Assembly (NCBI GenBank): GCA_030295235.1
Contig: AP026123.1
Location: forward strand, 2,108,001 to 2,172,000
Length of the DNA: 64,000 nucleotides
Origin: Fistulifera solaris
Lineage: Eukaryota
Reading direction: 5' to 3'
How positions within the stretch are numbered: the stretch's first letter is position 1; each line of letters begins with the position of its first letter. Positions 2,935-12,254 of this stretch are shown one piece after another. The notes below the pieces were generated by a model. It did no database searches and was not told the DNA's origin. It saw nothing but the letters and a program-made list of their open reading frames with translations. The position numbers were made by a program, and so were the translations under genes.

Positions 2935-4647
2935 AAAATGATACAGATATAAGTAACTCCCATTTTACGAACGCATGCTCTTCAGCTGTGTCACATTCGT
3001 CCATAAACTTTCTCGTGATCCTCTCGAAGAAGCACTTTGCTATTCAAATTGATTCTTTCACCTGTCACCGGCAACGGCAGTACAGGAATGCCGAATCCAC
3101 AGAAGTTCTTATTTAAAGCATGGGATTTAGCGAGGCTCTTGCAAGAGTCCAGGCAATTATTGCCGACGACAGTTCTCAGCAATCTCCAACAGAACCAAGC
3201 GAAGGCACAACCGGACATCAAACGGGATCCACGAATGATCCTAATGCTCCTTGGCAGCCTTGGGCCGATAAGGCTGGAACCCAGAGTGAGACAGGAAATG
3301 AACCTGTACTGCCTGACGAGGAACAGAGACTCAGGATGAGCCAGCTGATCAAACAGACGACGACGAACCCACGGACGCATACGATATACCAAGAAGTCAT
3401 GACGATCAAAAATTGATGACGGGCCTAACGATGATATTTGACCAAACGGACGATGAACCCAGCCACTCAGACGGCGACCAAACCGGCGACGATGAATGTT
3501 ACTGATGACGCAGCACTTGATAGCGCTTATGATCAAGGCTCGAGTACACCTCATCAATCCATCATGATGAGTTTACGAACCAAGCCTCTCTCCAGTTTTG
3601 GCTAACTAAAAGCAGGCTTGAAAGAGCTGCAAAAAGCTCAGCCACGTAGCTGAGCCCCTCGTGTGGTTGACACAATGATAGATGAAGAACAACTCCCAGC
3701 TGGAAAGCCGCTTTAACTGAAGAAGCTCAAAGATCTTTGCTTCGCCTTTCCCACGATAAAAGATGTTGGGTAAAACCGAGTGGACGATAGCGTTTCCATC
3801 CAATTCGATCGTAAAGCTGACTGAGCCTGCGTCAGCGGCCTATTTTCGATGCATGTCTTAGTCTTTGTAAGTGCCTTAAATCCAAACACACCTGAGGACG
3901 GTCCCTTTGCCGCGCTTTCGATCCAGATTCATGCGCCACACTTTTTGTCCGTTGGATGATGCATAAACTGGGACAAAACAAGTGTGTGGATCCGCGGATC
4001 AATCTCGAGGAGAAAGAATACTGTAGCAGTTTATCACAATGTCACAGCTGAGATCTAAATATTATTTTGGCGGGGGGCACTTCAACATTGTCACTTGGTC
4101 GTGCCACTAGAAATATATCTTTAGGTTTGTCAAGATCCCCGAATTTTGAATTAACATTTTTATTTATATCAGCAATTGCCGTTTTCAATTTGTCATTTAT
4201 TAATTAAGTCTTACTTAAGAAAATCAGATATAAAACTTAAAAGATTTAGTTCTCGATCCGATAACTTATTAAGTTGTTGGGAGAAACCCAAAGGCATAAT
4301 CTTTCTTCATTCTTTCATCTGTTTTGGATCACTGGAAGCAGGCATGAAGAGCTGCTGCAAAAAAGCAAATGCGCAACGTGCGACATCGTGACAAAGGCCA
4401 GTGTGGTAATAAAGTTCCTGTAATTTATAGCGAAATTAGCTAAAGAACAATTCCTTTCAACTGCTTGTAGAAGAACTCAATCATCTGGTAGCAGCTCCTA
4501 TCTTATCTTCCTGAGCTTTTGATCTCTCTGGTTTCATCCAATTCGTCCTTCGCGAATTCGCGAATTGTCTTGGTAATAAAGAGGAGAACATCTGATCAGG
4601 ATCGGAAGGTCAAGGCTGTGGACTATCCTATTGCTACAGCGAATACG

Positions 4648-4862
4648 CTCATGGTGGGATAATACATTAATTGTATTAATACCAAAATTGTATTACGGGC
4701 GGTTGACGGTCAGGCATGGTTTTGCAGGGCGGCAGAGCCTGTTGTTGTGCGACGGTCACAACATGCAACTCATGCGATCATCTCCATGATTAGTGGATGT
4801 AACATAATTCATCTATTGCATGCCTTATATCATTCTATTGCTAACGTAATAGGATTCATTGT
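4648..4862 (+). repeat. 5' LTR core (about 215 bp direct repeat)
   Basis: Near-identical to 9861-10074; I see one substitution and one 1-nt indel. Confidence 0.9.
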
Positions 4863-4869
4863 GTTTATC

Positions 4870-5234
4870 AGACCCAATACGAGATGCTACGTAGCTTCCG
4901 AAGTCAGTTGGAGGCGGTGAAGCAAAGACTTATTCTACAGCCGAATGGAAGAAAGTACCTGCTGAAGTTAAAGGTTCAAACTGGCAGCCAAGTGCTTTTC
5001 ATGCATTGACGGAAAGTCAGAAAGCAGATGCGGGCGCACGCGCGCAAAGAAGAAGAACAAGAAGAACCAGAAGAAAACGCCAAGGCAGCCGCAGCAGCGA
5101 AAGCAGCCGCAGCTAACGCCGATGATAGCAGCAGTGCCACTTCGGATGAAGAAGTTCCAATGAAGAATGCCGGGGAGCAGTTTGGTCGTGCAGCGCACAA
5201 GACAAAGAAGGGCAAGGGTATCCCCAGTCTCTGA
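4870..5234 (+). pseudogene. gag: Truncated copia gag, C-terminal remnant
   Basis: Low-complexity tail ending 'NAGEQFGRAAHKTKKGKGIPSL*', the kind of ending seen in diatom copia Gag. Only about 370 bp lie between the LTR and the gag stop. Confidence 0.6.
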
Positions 5235-8200
5235 CTAGGGTCGCTCCGACACATTCATTGTGTCGAACGGCACGTCTATAGGATGGATGTCCTGGACGAT
5301 GCTGGCTCTTTTGATCGCTGTGAGCTCAATAGCCATGCGGACACAGTTGTTGCTGGACGGAATATGGTGTTACTTGAAGCTAGTGGAGAAACGGTACAAG
5401 TCTCTCCGTACAGCCCCGAGTATCAACCATTGTCAGACATTCCGATTGCCACATGTGCCACTGCTTACGACAATCCTGAAACTGGCGAAGTTATTCTTTT
5501 GATTTTTGGACAGGCGTTGTATTTCGGGGGACCGTTTAGCTACTAGTCTGTTATCTCCGAACCAGATCCGTGACTCCAACCCAGTATGTTCCCGAATCAC
5601 GACACTCTATCATTTTGCCGTCCTCCTGAGCAACCAGAACTTGTTATTCCTCTTTCTATGGATGGTGTTATCTCAGGTTTCACTTCACGCCTACCAACTG
5701 ACTTCGAGCTACGTAGCATCTCGTATCTACGCCACGTCAGAGGACGAGTGGGATCCATCATCTTCACGTTTTCAAGAGCGCGAGCAGGCGGCTAAAGACG
5801 TGGATTTTCTTTACCCTATGTATCCTGTTCATCGCAAGATCTCGGCCCTAGCAATTGCTGAAAATCCGGCGTATGACTTTGACCCTTTGCATTCCGCCGG
5901 GGACATGGTTGACCGGGGACTTCAAGAACGGGGACTTCACTGTTAGCGGATTGGCAAAAGGTCTACTATTTTCAGATGTTTGCGGTTTTTGTCACGAACG
6001 GTATCAAGATTCCGGGGACTGGTCAGACACAAGACAGGTTGCGGCGTTTCGGAAGGAAGCACCAAAGCCAGCGCTGTCGCCAGAAGTGTTGGGGAAAACG
6101 GTGGGGAATTGGCAACGAAATCGCCTCTAATACCATCAGGACCACGACACAGAAAGGAATTCGGAAAGTGGTACATCCAGTTCAACGACGATTGAGATCG
6201 CAACCGTATCTCAGGCACCCAACGCTACGAGGACGATGGTATTCGGATACTGTTTTCTTCAAGGACAAAGGCTTGGGTGGAGAAACTTGTGCTCAGTTGA
6301 CTACCAACGGAAAAGGTTACGGTCGGTTTTGGCCGATGAAGTCGAAGCGTCTTGCAAGTCATGGATTGGTGAATCTGATCCAGGAAGACGGGATCCCAGA
6401 AAAGCTGATCACCGACAACTCCAAGGAACAGGGAGCTGCTGCAGCTGGGAATACCGAGTGGGAGAAGGTGGTGTCACGTTATCACATCAATCGTACCTTC
6501 ACGCAACCATTCTCCTGGTGGCAGAACCGAGCTGAGTCGGAAGTGCGAGAAATCAAGAGAGGCATTCGGAAGTGGACGACACAGAAACGTTCGCCACGGC
6601 GACTTTGGCCATACCTCGGTGATTTGGTCACGCGCATTCGAAGTTTCACAGCTTTGGGCATTCCATCATTGCAAGGACGGACACCTTTTGAGCACGTTAG
6701 AGGCTACACACCAGATATTAGTGTCTACGCTCAGCACGAGTGGTACGATTGGGTGTGGTATCTGGACGAAGACGGCGAGAATCATCTAGGTCGTTGGTTA
6801 GGACCAGCTGGAGAGTACGGATCCGGTGATTGTTACTGGATTCTCCCAAGGTCGTGTCAACCGATCGTGAGATCCACGGTGTGGGCGGTTGATGCCCAGG
6901 AATTCGGAACCGATGCAATGAAGGCTAGAGTCGACGAACTGACTGCTATCATTGAACGAAAAATCGGCGACGCCGCGGAACTTGACGAAGAGTTGCTACC
7001 CGACATTTCAATGCCTGTTGATTTATTTGACGCGGATGCGGATGAACAGCCAGAGCCAGAGGAACCTCGTCCGGATTTGGACGACTATACTCCGGAAGCG
7101 TCACGATCACTATATTAACTCAGAGATTCAACTACTAGTTGGTGGTGAGCTGAGGCATGGTGTCGTCAAGCGGAGGGTTAAAAATGATGATGGCATACCG
7201 ATAGGTTCAGCGAATGAGAATCCGATCCTAGACACGCGATACTACGAGGTTGAATTCCCGGATGGGACGGTCGACTCGTACAGTGCTAACATTATTGCTG
7301 AGAATCTTTATGCTCAGATCGATGATGAAGGTCGGATGTTTGCGGTATTATCGGAAATTGTCGATCATCGGAAGAATGGTCATGCAGTATCCAAGGAGAA
7401 CGGCTTTCTGCCTAACGGAACTGGCAGCAATCCTAGTCGGAAGATTACTACCAGGGGCTGGGAACTGTTATGCAATTGGAAAGATGGAAGCTCGGATTGG
7501 GTCCGTTTGTCGGATATCAAAGAGTCGCATCCAGTACAAGTTGCGCAATATGCAGTTGGAGCCAAGATCGACGACGAACCAGCGTTCGCCCTGGTGGGTT
7601 CCCTATGTGATTCGGAAAAAGGATCGGATCATTGCAAAGACCAAGAACAGATATTGGAAGAGAACTCACAAGTACGGGTTCGGTTGCCAAAGACTGTGGC
7701 GGAAGCCTTACAGATAGATCGCGATACCGGTACGGATTACTGGCGGAAAGCGATTGAGAAAGAGATGAAGAATGTTTCGATTGCCTTCGAGTTCAATGCC
7801 GAGGATTTGATTCCAGTGGGACACAAGGAGATCAAGTGTCACATGATATTTGACGTGAAGATCACCTTAGTTCGCTTTGTGGCGGATGGACACAAAGTCG
7901 AAGAACCGAAGGAGAATACGTTTTCATCTGTCGTGTCGAGAGATTCCGTAAGACTATTCTTTCTGCTTGCTGCTTTGAATAACTTGAAAGTGTTGTCAGC
8001 CGATATTCAGAACGCTTATCTAACGGCCGATCAAAGAGAAATACTGGTACAGAACAGGGTTGGAATTTGGTTCGAATCAGGGTCGCCCGGCTAAGATTGT
8101 TCGTGCTTTGTACGGACTTCCTTCGGCTGGCTTCCGATTCCGATCACACCCTCGCATCTAAGTTACGGGAACGCGTGTAAAGCTGATCCTGACATCTGGA

Positions 8201-9338
8201 TGAGGCCAGCTCTGAAGCCGGATGGCACCAAGTAATACGAATATTTGTTGGCGACGTGGATGATCTTGTAGGACAAAGTACCGATCCTGATAAGATGTTC
8301 GGCGAAATTGTACAGATCTTTCAGTTTAAAGACGGGAAAGCGGAAGAGCCGGAATTGTACCTCGGAGCCGACGTTAAAAAGTGGCATATTGATAATGCCG
8401 AAGACCCGACAAAGGACCGTTGGGCACTCGTCGGAAAAGTATACCAAAAAGGCTACCAGCGAGGTTGAAACTGAACTTCACAAGGTTCGGTTGGAACTAC
8501 CGAAGAAAGCGGCAACTCCATTTAGTGCAGGATACCGTCCGGAATTGGACGTTTCACCAGAATTGGACGATCGGCCGTCAGAATTATTTCCAGGGGTTGA
8601 TTGGCGTGTTACGATGGTTATGCGAGTTGGGACGCTTGGATATCATTGTACCGGTCTCGATGTTATCGAGGTACCTGGCGCAAGCCAGAGAAGGTCATCT
8701 TGATCAAGTGTTTCATATCTTTGCTTACTTGAAATCTCACGACCGTTCTACTTTGGTTTTTGATGATACCAGACCTTTCATTGATGACAGATGGTTCGTA
8801 AGAAGGGACTGGAGCGAGTTTTATCCGGATGCAGCTGAAGTGGATCCCACCAGACAAACCGGAGGAGAGTGGTGAGCCTGTGCTTATTTCATGTTTCTGC
8901 GATGCGGATCATGCCGGTTGTAGGGATACTCGACGTTCACATAGTGGCGTGCTTGTTTTTGTTAACAGGGCTCCTCCTATTCTTTGATTCTCGGGCGCCA
9001 GACAACTGTCGAGACTTCTACTTTCGGAAGCGAGATAGTAGCTTTGAAGATTGCCGTCGAGATGATTGAAGGTTTGCGTTATAAACTCCGGGATGATGGG
9101 AGTGCCAATTGATGGACCGACTTCTGTTTTCTGCGATAGTGATTCCGTGGTCAAGAATACGACACATCCTGAGAGTCCTTTGAAGCTAATGCGGTAGCGT
9201 ATCACAAAGTTCGTGAAGCGATTGCTGCTGGTATTATTCGATTGACGAAGGAATGGTGACACGAATTTGAGCGACATTCTCACCAAGTTGTTGGGAGGTC
9301 CGCGTCTTCGTGATCTCAGCTCTCGGGTGCTTTGGTGA
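5235..9338 (+). pseudogene. pol: Copia pol (protease, integrase, chromo-like segment, RT, RNase H), frameshifted
   Basis: PR 'CELNSHADT'; IN DDE 'WYSDTVF...ITDNSKEQ...WQNRAESEVRE'; RT 'SADIQNAYL' and a degenerate xVDD near 8255; RNase H 'FCDADHAG...FCDSDSV...NLSDILTK'; ends at TGA about 9338. Confidence 0.9.
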
Positions 9339-9860
9339 CGCTCTTGTGCTGATTGTTGCCGGTGGTATCGACAGTGAGAGAGTTTTATTTATATTTACAT
9401 GTAAGGGTTAAAACAACCCGCCCCCATTTGAAAACGAAGGGGCCTCTGCAAATCTGATCATGTGAGAACGAGTTCGCGACATGCTCACGGGGACACAGCG
9501 AATACGCTCACCCTAACAATGCGTTTCAACAGGAATTTTCCGAAATTTTGTCACTGCATCCGGTATCATCAACAGATACATCTGAGGCCCATTTTTGACT
9601 CTTCTCTTGTCAGAAACACTTACTCAACATAAGAAACCAACCATGGCACAACTTTATCAAAATTCATTCTTTCTTACCTCTTCAACATACCCAAATATTC
9701 ACCGTTTTATTGCGGATGTAACCGTGAAGTCGCTGGTTCAATTGGACCATTTCTTCACAAGATACAGGTGAAAAACCGGCTCACTGAACAATGGCTGTTG
9801 ACCAAACTTCAAATTCCTATAAGTCTATCAAATCAAGTCTTCTGAGAATATATCTTCTTC

Positions 9861-10074
9861 CTCATGGTGGGATAATACATTAATTATATTAATACCAAAA
9901 TTGTATTACGGCGGTTGACGGTCAGGCATGGTTTTGCAGGGCGGCAGAGCCTGTTGTTGTGCGACGGTCACAACATGCAACTCATGCGATCATCTCCATG
10001 ATTAGTGGATGTAACATAATTCATCTATTGCATGCCTTATATCATTCTATTGCTAACGTAATAGGATTCATTGT
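9861..10074 (+). repeat. 3' LTR core
   Basis: Direct repeat of 4648-4862. Confidence 0.9.
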
Positions 10075-12254
10075 TGCTCATTGCAGATTATTGAGGGAAA
10101 TTTTTATTGGGTAAAGAAATCTGAGTTCGAGGAAATCAGATATAGCATTTCACTGTATCACTCGATGTTTGTATCGCCCCTAGCTCGAATCGATATTTAG
10201 CTCTAAGTTAAAATTGAAACCATGGGCGAATCCTCATGAATTCATTCATTTTTATTAGCATAAACGTAACAAAAACCCAAAATTCATGATGTGTCTCCTT
10301 GAAAGAAACAACAACTGATATCCGTTATTTCTTCTCCCAAGACGACGTCTCGTTCAAATGAGCCATCCAGTCCGAATCCGTTTCTAATGCTTTATTTCGG
10401 CAAAAATGAATCCCTAAGACGTGGATAGGACTTAAAATAATATAATTTTGTGCTTTTGGCTACCCCGACAGGCGAACTTCCTTGAACCAAATGATAAAAC
10501 CAGATTCTCTCCAGTCAATAAGGTTCGATCCTCTTAATGTTAGATAGGGCTTGTTATTGTTATTGCAACAGGCGAACTTCCTCAAGCGAAATCATTAAAC
10601 CATACAGTCCTAATGTAAGATCATAAGCAACCTGACAGCCATATTGTCGTTCCTTTAACTTCCTCCTTAGTTTACAAAGCAGGGCATTTGACGTCCGATG
10701 GATAGTCCATACTCATGATGATAAGCAGCATGATTCACAACCACAAATCATCAATAACGTTCCGTCGCAGTGCAAAACGGTTTTAGTTTCTACCATAAAC
10801 ATTTTAAACTTTTCGCTCAAAAACCGTGCTCCTACGTGCAGTTTTGAGCTTTTCAATTAAACATAGTAAGGAAACCGATATAGCATTGAATGGATTTGTT
10901 CGCCTTTAAGACAGTTTTGCGTGATACATCGTCTTGAAAAGTATGCTACTTATGACTTTTAGATCTCAAAGACATTAGGAACCTGGTTACTTTTTCGAAT
11001 TGAGTTCCGCTTTGCTAGCCCCGCTTATTGTTTACCCAAAGAAATGAATGAATAACATTTGACAAAGGGCTTGCTTGTCGATGTTGCGAGTTGAACGAGT
11101 TTAACGTTCTGATCCTCATTAGCTCAGCAATCTTAGAAACGGAATAATCGCCAAATTCATAAACAAATGTATTATTGCTATCCGAAAGTGACTTTGATTA
11201 CGTTTGTCGTGTTGTTGATAGTTGTATAGCACAATGGTTAGTCAGCCCCCACCTTGAATTCAAATAAAAAATATATGAAACCTGCTTGTTTTATGTTCGG
11301 TATCACAACCCAGCAGCAAGCACTTGATAGATTTACAACAATATAAAAGTAACGACGGGGTTCGTAAGCACGTGTACGTGGTGATAGAAAAAGAGATTAT
11401 GATCGCTGATGGGCGAGCTGTAGATACGCCCCGCCATGCGCCATCCAAGTGACTATTTCTAATCAAGGAAGCTAGCTTGCTGGTGAAGATTTCTGCATAG
11501 ACGTTCTGTAGGTAGTGCGCGCCAAGCATCCTCTCAAGCCAAGTGAGCAATTCTGATCAGGGAAGCTAGCTTCCTTTATTCCCGAATATACTCAGTGGAT
11601 ATATTTTTAACTTCGATCCACGTGGTTTTACGAGAGAAATTGGGTACAAAAACCAAAGTTGTTTTTCAGTCTGGCAGATAATGAATCATCAATTTTAGGA
11701 AAATTTGTGTTTCTGATTTAATCAATTTCATTTCATAAACACAGACTATAAATGCCAATATTTTATTTTTTCGATCCACGTAATCTTACGAGAGAAATAT
11801 CGGATACCTGACAAAATGCGTTTGACAGGCTGGAATCTCTCAGACATAATAGAATCGATTTCAGGTTGGGCGTCAAGCTGAAGACGTTCAATGAATGTCG
11901 TCCTTGTCTTACTTGTCGCTCACAAGATACGATTTTGTCCGCCATTCCTTGGTTGTACGGCGAAGTCGGAATTGGCGCTCGCAGTGAGGCTTGGACTAAA
12001 AAAAGAGGCGCATGCCCCTATTTCGGTTTTGAGTTCGGTTCCGAGTAATGTAAATCTGCACTCAATTCGGTTCTCACTTTGTAGTCTAGAGAAAATACGG
12101 CTACTAGTCGTCTTATTTTTCCTAGTGTCAGAATGCAATTTCGACATCCGACTGAATTTTTCATTGTTCTTTTTTTCCCTACCCAATGCGGCTCTTAAGG
12201 TTTTGTCACGACAGGGGCGCGAGGCGCGTTTTTAGCTGCTCAAATCAGAAAAAA

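Follow-up and report, generated by a model that had tools for sequence, protein, structure and literature searches.

Control of the ratio of Gag to Pol in copia-type retrotransposons is known for few models: frameshifting in Ty1, splicing in copia and bypass in Tca2. Here we describe the corresponding junction of a long terminal repeat (LTR) retrotransposon at positions 4648-10075 of the window, by which we mean the whole 64,000-nt stretch of Fistulifera solaris contig AP026123.1 that was analysed. By its sequence, the element is a Ty1/copia retrotransposon with the order protease, integrase, reverse transcriptase and RNase H (PR-IN-RT-RH) and belongs to a diatom-associated lineage. A preliminary description of the window had named a single open reading frame (ORF), frameshifting and splicing as the usual solutions of Ty1/copia elements; that list leaves out the cases with an in-frame stop, Tca2 and, among Ty3/gypsy elements, Tj1 and Tosmo.

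In the fission yeast Ty3/gypsy elements Tj1, Tcry1 and Tosmo1-3 Gag and Pol are likewise separated by one in-frame TGA. It stands in a conserved TGA-CT(A/G), has been interpreted as a site of programmed readthrough and is, in Tj1, reported to be essential for transposition (bioRxiv 10.1101/2022.12.06.519325). Both UGA-CUAG and UGA-C are known to be leaky; UGA-CUA alone gives 1.5% readthrough in human cells, and UGA is the best stop with this motif (PMC4132726), in agreement with the preliminary description, which had called UGA-CUA(G) a known leaky-stop context. The described elements to which ours can be compared in diatoms, by description, are the CoDi elements, Ty1/copia retrotransposons of PR-IN-RT-RH order with an ORF1 upstream of a polyprotein ORF2 (Maumus et al. 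2009, PMC2806351). The CoDi text gives no frame, stop identity, context or mechanism for ORF1 and ORF2 (PMC2806351). Our literature search found no report linking CoDi or other diatom elements with readthrough; the supplementary table of the CoDi paper, which lay outside this search, may list the stop between ORF1 and ORF2. In the literature consulted, stop-codon readthrough is a known strategy of retroelements that is not yet spelled out for diatoms.

In the window element the gag sequence runs into a TGA at 5232-5234, followed directly by CTAG and, after a spacer of 12 nt, by a perfect 7-bp stem. All letters of this arrangement were verified. The protease frame continues past the TGA without a shift and in translation stays open for 103 codons, to position 5543. 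We consider it likely, on sequence comparison, that the lineage makes Gag-Pol by programmed readthrough of this UGA, and that the TGA, the CTAG and the hairpin of the window are the inherited signal in a defective copy.

The evidence comes mainly from relatives of the element. A search with the window integrase ORF returned 49 longer proteins at E <= 0.001. Most of them measure 1,360-1,416 residues and start 20-45 residues before the protease motif, that is, at about the position of the window TGA. DNA of 79 related loci was then retrieved from metagenome contigs, with 80 of the 542 matched relatives kept. Fifty-five protease sites were located in 51 of the 79 loci, and 50 of these sites were informative once four at a contig start and an internal match in a degraded copy (L038) had been left out. 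An in-frame TGA stands between ORF1 and pol in 46 of the 50 informative junctions, a TAG in one (L036, which has a short pol frame) and no stop in three; pol is never in a different frame from ORF1. A sense codon at this position in sibling copies, or pol in another frame, had been put forward as the observation that would speak against readthrough; among the relatives a junction without a stop is confined to three cases, and the change of frame was not found. A second stop was never seen at a junction. The shared frame extends upstream of the TGA for 339-684 codons where the contig is long enough, or for 58-542 codons to the contig start, and downstream it is open for up to 1,543 codons. A single stop (46 TGA and one TAG of 50) is thus flanked by two long ORFs in one frame, an ORF1 of ~270-680 codons and a pol of ~1300-1540 codons.

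Removal of junctions at least 90% alike left a non-redundant set of 37, in which the stop is TGA in 36. The pol terminators of the same loci are TGA in 11 cases, TAA in six and TAG in five. In a tree built from the integrases, which are 23-58% identical to the window, every clade retains the TGA, and the stop-less forms are nested inside TGA-bearing clades. Two of the latter (L034 and L035) are single ORFs of 1,837 and 1,882 codons; the third (L067) is open to the contig start. The region is too divergent for the sense codon that replaces the stop in these fused relatives to be placed. Relatives with a species name come from Fragilaria crotonensis (P0013, P0077 and P0088) and Fistulifera solaris (P0048). 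No relative was found in a scan of viral contigs.

ORF1 of the relatives starts with ATG and a conserved N-terminal motif, and no Pfam family matches it. A structure model of one ORF1 (L003), built from 22 sequences with a predicted local distance difference test score (pLDDT) of 83, superposes on the Drosophila Copia capsid (8vvw_A) with Z 12.2 over 183 of 184 residues at a root-mean-square deviation (rmsd) of 5.3, and on the C-terminal capsid domain (CA-CTD) of Ty1 Gag with Z 11.4-12.2 and rmsd 1.8-2.1 over about 91 residues. Further matches, after Copia and Ty1, were PEG10, PNMA2, Arc and HIV CA. As judged from this model, ORF1 of the lineage is Gag with a retroelement capsid fold, while the window copy is without the capsid domain. 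A profile search collected 136 Gag-family proteins at E <= 1e-10; among the 120 listed, two belong to the diatom Fragilaria crotonensis, 54 measure 450-469 residues, and 84 have a conserved AGxQFG motif no more than 40 residues from their C-terminus.

This motif, together with a Lys-rich end, characterises the Gag tails of the relatives and, in those counted, precedes the gag stop by 12-15 residues. The window has AGEQFG (5172-5189) in frame, 15 codons before its TGA, and the Gag tails of relatives match window 5142-5210 in the frame of the TGA (tblastn), the match being confined to the C-terminal tail. By sequence comparison, the window TGA is therefore the orthologous end of Gag. It had been described as the place where gag ends, which is correct for the stop, but the gag present here is a C-terminal remnant only. 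The AGxQFG motif and the Lys-rich end may be a protease cleavage site or a part of the termination context.

Next to the stop, the relatives show a marked preference for particular letters. The base directly after the stop is C in 23 of the 37 non-redundant junctions, whereas 19.9% of codons begin with C (p = 2e-8). CTA comes next in nine of the 37, compared to 1.0% of codons; CTA accounts for nine of the 14 Leu codons after the stop versus 12.9% of Leu codons overall (p = 1e-5). The CTA junctions are scattered over the integrase tree, and CTAG is found in four of these nine as well as in the window. A leaky stop in a favourable 3' context is thus present as TGA in 36 of 37 junctions, C in 23 and CTA in nine, and as TGA-CTAG in the window.

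The RNA that follows the stop is unusually prone to fold. In the window, RNA 5226-5300 has a minimum free energy (MFE) of -25.9 kcal/mol (z = -2.11; 8 of 200 shuffles fold as stably), and the 70 nt after the stop are stabler than all 134 same-length windows of the same element (z = -3.27). For the relatives, the stretch from +4 to +73 was compared with windows of its own locus at 38 junctions. Its mean z was -1.13; z fell below -1.64 in 13 of 38 junctions, and in 18 of 38 the stretch was among the most stable tenth. The flanks -73..-4, +104..+173 and +204..+273 were ordinary, with 2, 2 and 3 of 38. Where z is below -1 (20 junctions), pairing begins 0-12 nt after the stop. Hairpin sequences vary between sublineages; the likeness of the window hairpin to those of L002-L005 was read by eye only, as MAFFT misaligned them. 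Such 3' structure may stimulate readthrough.

The stretch after the stop, judged by its pattern of substitutions, evolves as coding sequence in the TGA frame. From the stop to the protease motif, in nine pairs of relatives, the synonymous share of differing codons is 40% in the TGA frame versus 8% and 7% in the other two (Fisher p = 3e-23); the frame-0 protein served as guide for this alignment, a procedure biased towards the TGA frame. In the first 15 codons, compared without gaps and anchored at the stop, the share is 29% in the TGA frame versus 10% and 13%.

According to the mechanism we propose, gag (ORF1) and pol (ORF2) would be translated in one frame with the single TGA between them. 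Most ribosomes would stop at the UGA and yield Gag, while a minority would decode it by a near-cognate tRNA and proceed into protease, integrase and reverse transcriptase, so that a Gag-Pol fusion would be made at a low ratio. Readthrough would be favoured by the weakness of the stop, a UGA followed by C and often by CUA or CUAG, and by a stem-loop that begins 0-12 nt further on. In the window itself the signal would be a relic, or would serve only a copy mobilised in trans. The proposal that this diatom copia lineage makes Gag-Pol by readthrough had been made from the window letters alone, and the stops of the relatives, their context, the 3' structure and the coding signature all agree with it. 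The sequences show the anatomy of the junctions, their conservation, the context bias, the enrichment of structure and the coding signature; that the UGA is read through, how efficiently, and what part the hairpin plays in it, we infer.

A number of observations weigh against this reading. The base after the stop is not C in 14 of 37 junctions, and 11 of 38 are without excess structure (z > 0). As the junctions share descent, the p-values given above overstate their independence. Alignment of junctions had been suggested as a check; it bears out the conservation of the in-frame TGA, but CTA is present in only nine of 37 and covariation of the stem is thin, with 3-4 sequences per subgroup. A 10-bp stem in one subgroup of four sequences does speak for structure: no pair is broken, one is compensatory and there are two G-U changes. 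In a second group, of three sequences (group A), 85% of cells are paired compared to about 40% when slid, and there are two compensatory pairs, a count that was reached by 47 of 500 shuffles. The encoded peptide (e.g. RVMDLS in one subgroup) may account for a part of the stem conservation. Three relatives (L034, L035 and L067) and the Fragilaria crotonensis gene model P0013 read through the junction without a stop; the stop is therefore dispensable in some lineages. Finally, the gag-UGA-pol junction of Tca2, with its 3' pseudoknot, failed to drive readthrough in Saccharomyces cerevisiae (PMC2194720), and therefore an in-frame UGA with 3' structure need not suffice.

The same experiment bears on the possibility that Pol is made without classical context-driven readthrough, by separate initiation (from an internal promoter, at an internal AUG or by reinitiation) or by another non-canonical bypass of the kind proposed for Tca2. 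The Tca2 junction alone, besides giving no readthrough in S. cerevisiae, has a minor promoter inside (PMC2194720), and in our set an ATG lies between the stop and the protease motif in 30 of 37 junctions. The remaining seven have no ATG before the protease motif, however, and separate initiation imposes no frame, whereas in 47 of 50 informative junctions a single stop divides gag from a pol that shares its frame. The coding signature is present already in the first 15 codons after the stop, and the preference for TGA at the junction (36 of 37) contrasts with 11 of 22 at the pol terminators. We regard this route to Pol as unlikely. Removal of the stop from some transcripts by splicing, with Gag-Pol made from the spliced RNA, has a precedent in Drosophila copia, where the ratio of Gag to Gag-Pol is set in this way (PMC2194720), and a predicted intron could explain why the P0013 model crosses the junction. 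An intron, however, need neither stay open nor evolve as coding sequence, yet the synonymous excess in the TGA frame begins right after the stop and a second stop is never present. No splice evidence was seen in the contigs, whose joints lie elsewhere (4876-4979 and 5762-5878), and we think splicing very improbable.

Still less probable is recoding of the UGA as selenocysteine, with the nearby hairpin as redefinition element. The stop is UGA with a hairpin close to it, and some eukaryotic selenocysteine sites do use stem-loops adjoining the UGA (PMC4132726). Nevertheless, Rfam, including the selenocysteine insertion sequence (SECIS) families, matched neither the window element at E <= 1 nor any of 18 related loci at the gathering score, although a divergent SECIS is possible; contexts and hairpins vary between sublineages, and a retroelement would have no evident gain from selenocysteine in a linker. 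That the window TGA is a stop acquired by decay or by chance after the copy had died, with CTAG and hairpin next to it by coincidence, we consider hardly credible. The copy is indeed defective, with a truncated gag, Asn for Asp in the protease and many frame breaks, and the heptamer TGACTAG is nothing unusual, with five + strand occurrences in the 64-kb window versus ~3.9 expected, the other four sites all lying outside ORFs. But the position of the stop, 15 codons past AGxQFG, is that of the conserved Gag terminus, 46 of 50 relatives share it, and independent contigs (record 5 of X1 and record 18 of X3) carry the TGA with no other letter among the differences listed. Perfect 7-bp hairpins with a loop of 3-8 nt have 37 + strand start positions in the 64 kb, and from this census the chance that one starts within 21 nt of a given site is ~0.012.

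The features of the element are collected in Table 1. Judged by its sequence, this copy is defective and cannot make Gag or an active protease. Its gag has lost the capsid part, the protease has Asn in place of Asp, and the site of the deletion carries an inverted duplication. The frame of the gag remnant has 74 open codons as written (5010-5231), bounded upstream by another TGA at 5007, and 112 open codons from 4895 after contig indels at 5034, 5077 and 5080 are applied. As with ORF1, Pfam has no family for it. The 46-nt inverted copy of a protease-coding stretch lies between the 5' LTR and the gag remnant. At each arm of this inverted repeat the contigs from runs X1 and X2 are interrupted, and one X1 contig joins the LTR to the 4877-4922 arm. 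The inverted duplicate, standing where most of gag is gone, may be a scar left by template switching or repair when gag was deleted. The active-site motif of the protease (5325-5345) reads LNSHADT, with AAT (Asn) at 5328-5330; the motif starts with Asp in 36 of 37 relatives, and the covering contigs show the Asn of the window copy unchanged.

Table 1. Features of the Ty1/copia element and its gag-pol junction (positions in the window).
Feature	Position	Strand	Evidence or remark
5' LTR, 215 bp	4648-4862	+	Direct repeat with 9861-10074, 99% identical (blastn)
Inverted copy of protease-coding stretch, reverse complement of 5683-5726	4877-4922		blastn, 91% over 47 nt
Gag C-terminal remnant, basic tail, EEVPM...AGEQFG...K-rich motif	4895-5231	+	No start codon, no capsid domain
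TGA, inherited gag terminator, proposed readthrough stop	5232-5234	+	Sequence; orthologous TGA in relatives
CTAG adjoining the stop; CTA (Leu) opens the extension	5235-5238	+	Sequence
N-terminal extension and protease region of pol	5235-5790	+	Residues 2-28 onward of relatives align from 5247-5316
Hairpin 3' of the stop: lower stem GTCG/CGGC, internal loop, upper stem	5240-5271	+	Predicted: MFE and centroid structures
Perfect 7-bp upper stem CGACACA/TGTGTCG, 5-nt loop	5247-5253 / 5259-5265	+	12-nt spacer after the stop
Second predicted hairpin, further downstream	5273-5298	+	Structure prediction only
Integrase ORF, 401 codons	5913-7115	+	49 longer relatives at E <= 0.001
Reverse transcriptase and RNase H region, split over three frames	7102-9335	+	tblastn of full-length relatives
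3' LTR	9861-10074	+	Direct repeat with the 5' LTR

As written, pol of the window is dispersed over three frames. Full-length relatives are nevertheless colinear with it: protease end at 5247-5770, integrase at 6000-7100, reverse transcriptase at 7102-8650 and C-terminus at 8576-9335. Pfam RVT_2 matches 6943-8091 of the frameshifted copy with E 4.2e-05 and 23.7 bits, under the cut-off of 31.6, and scores 57 and 73.8 bits in the full-length relatives P0006 and P0045. Independent contigs from public runs cover 4899-5715 and 5139-5289 and differ from the window by no substitutions, only by one-base lengths. Five contig indels, among a larger number, were applied to the window (5034, 5077, 5080, 5526 and 5945), and all except 5945 are in or beside short single-base runs. 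The frameshift at the G run 5526-5530 is missing from the contigs, as is the one-base length difference between the LTRs at 4697. Many frame breaks of the element are therefore probably homopolymer errors of the assembly, not decay. Other frameshifts elsewhere in the window are perhaps of the same origin.

No second copy of the element was found in the 64-kb window, and inspection of the LTR ends by eye (4640-4652 and 10070-10080) showed no target-site duplication. The shared LTR repeat begins with CTCATGG and ends with CATTGT, unlike the usual TG...CA. Between integrase and reverse transcriptase a conserved stretch, GW.LL..WKDGS..WV.L.D.KES.P..VA.YA, is seen at window 7440-7560 and at about residues 760-800 of P0006. 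It resembles the chromodomain at the C-terminus of CoDi-A integrase (PMC2774666), and Pfam gave no chromodomain match to it. The partial protein named Fistulifera solaris (P0048) is 93% identical over the part matched to about 7010-7330 of the window, the end of integrase and the following region, so that this named pennate diatom must have close sibling copies.

One in-frame UGA, with the context and the structure expected of a readthrough site, is retained across a whole, deeply branching lineage found in diatom-rich environments. On balance we lean, with some reserve, towards a large and old clade of diatom-associated Ty1/copia elements that would depend uniformly on UGA readthrough for its Gag:Gag-Pol ratio, with fast-evolving, lineage-specific 3' hairpins and repeated arrival at UGA-CUA(G). 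If this is true, stramenopiles would join the hosts in which UGA-C and UGA-CUA(G) signals act, far from vertebrates and viruses, and the junctions would offer dozens of natural signal variants for comparison as well as a natural, tunable readthrough cassette for diatom genetics. Annotation would also be affected, as gene callers now split such elements into 'hypothetical' ORF1 and ORF2 proteins. For the window, the proposal is mainly an explanation: the stop would be an inherited signal in a dead copy.

Tj1, Tcry1 and Tosmo1-3 are fungal Ty3/gypsy elements of PR-RT-IN order in which GAA before the stop is strictly conserved, whereas the lineage described here is Ty1/copia (PR-IN-RT), has a variable codon before the stop and frequently has a 3' hairpin. 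Tca2 (pCal) of Candida albicans is, like our element, a Ty1/copia retrotransposon organised as gag-UGA-pol, but has a purine-rich spacer and a proposed pseudoknot (PMC2194720), while the diatom-associated junctions often have UGA-C or UGA-CUA(G) followed by simple predicted stem-loops. Murine leukaemia virus (MuLV) likewise makes Gag-Pol via one in-frame stop helped by a nearby downstream RNA structure (PMC2194720, PMC4132726); there the stop is UAG, with an 8-nt spacer and a pseudoknot, and here it is UGA (36 of 37), with spacers of 0-12 nt. UGA-CUA(G) contexts occur in OPRL1, OPRK1, AQP4, MAPK10 and alphaviruses, and the heptamer UGA-CUAG is the same as that of the window. The known UGA-CUAG systems are vertebrate genes and animal viruses, whereas in the retrotransposon lineage described here CTA follows the stop in only nine of 37 relatives.

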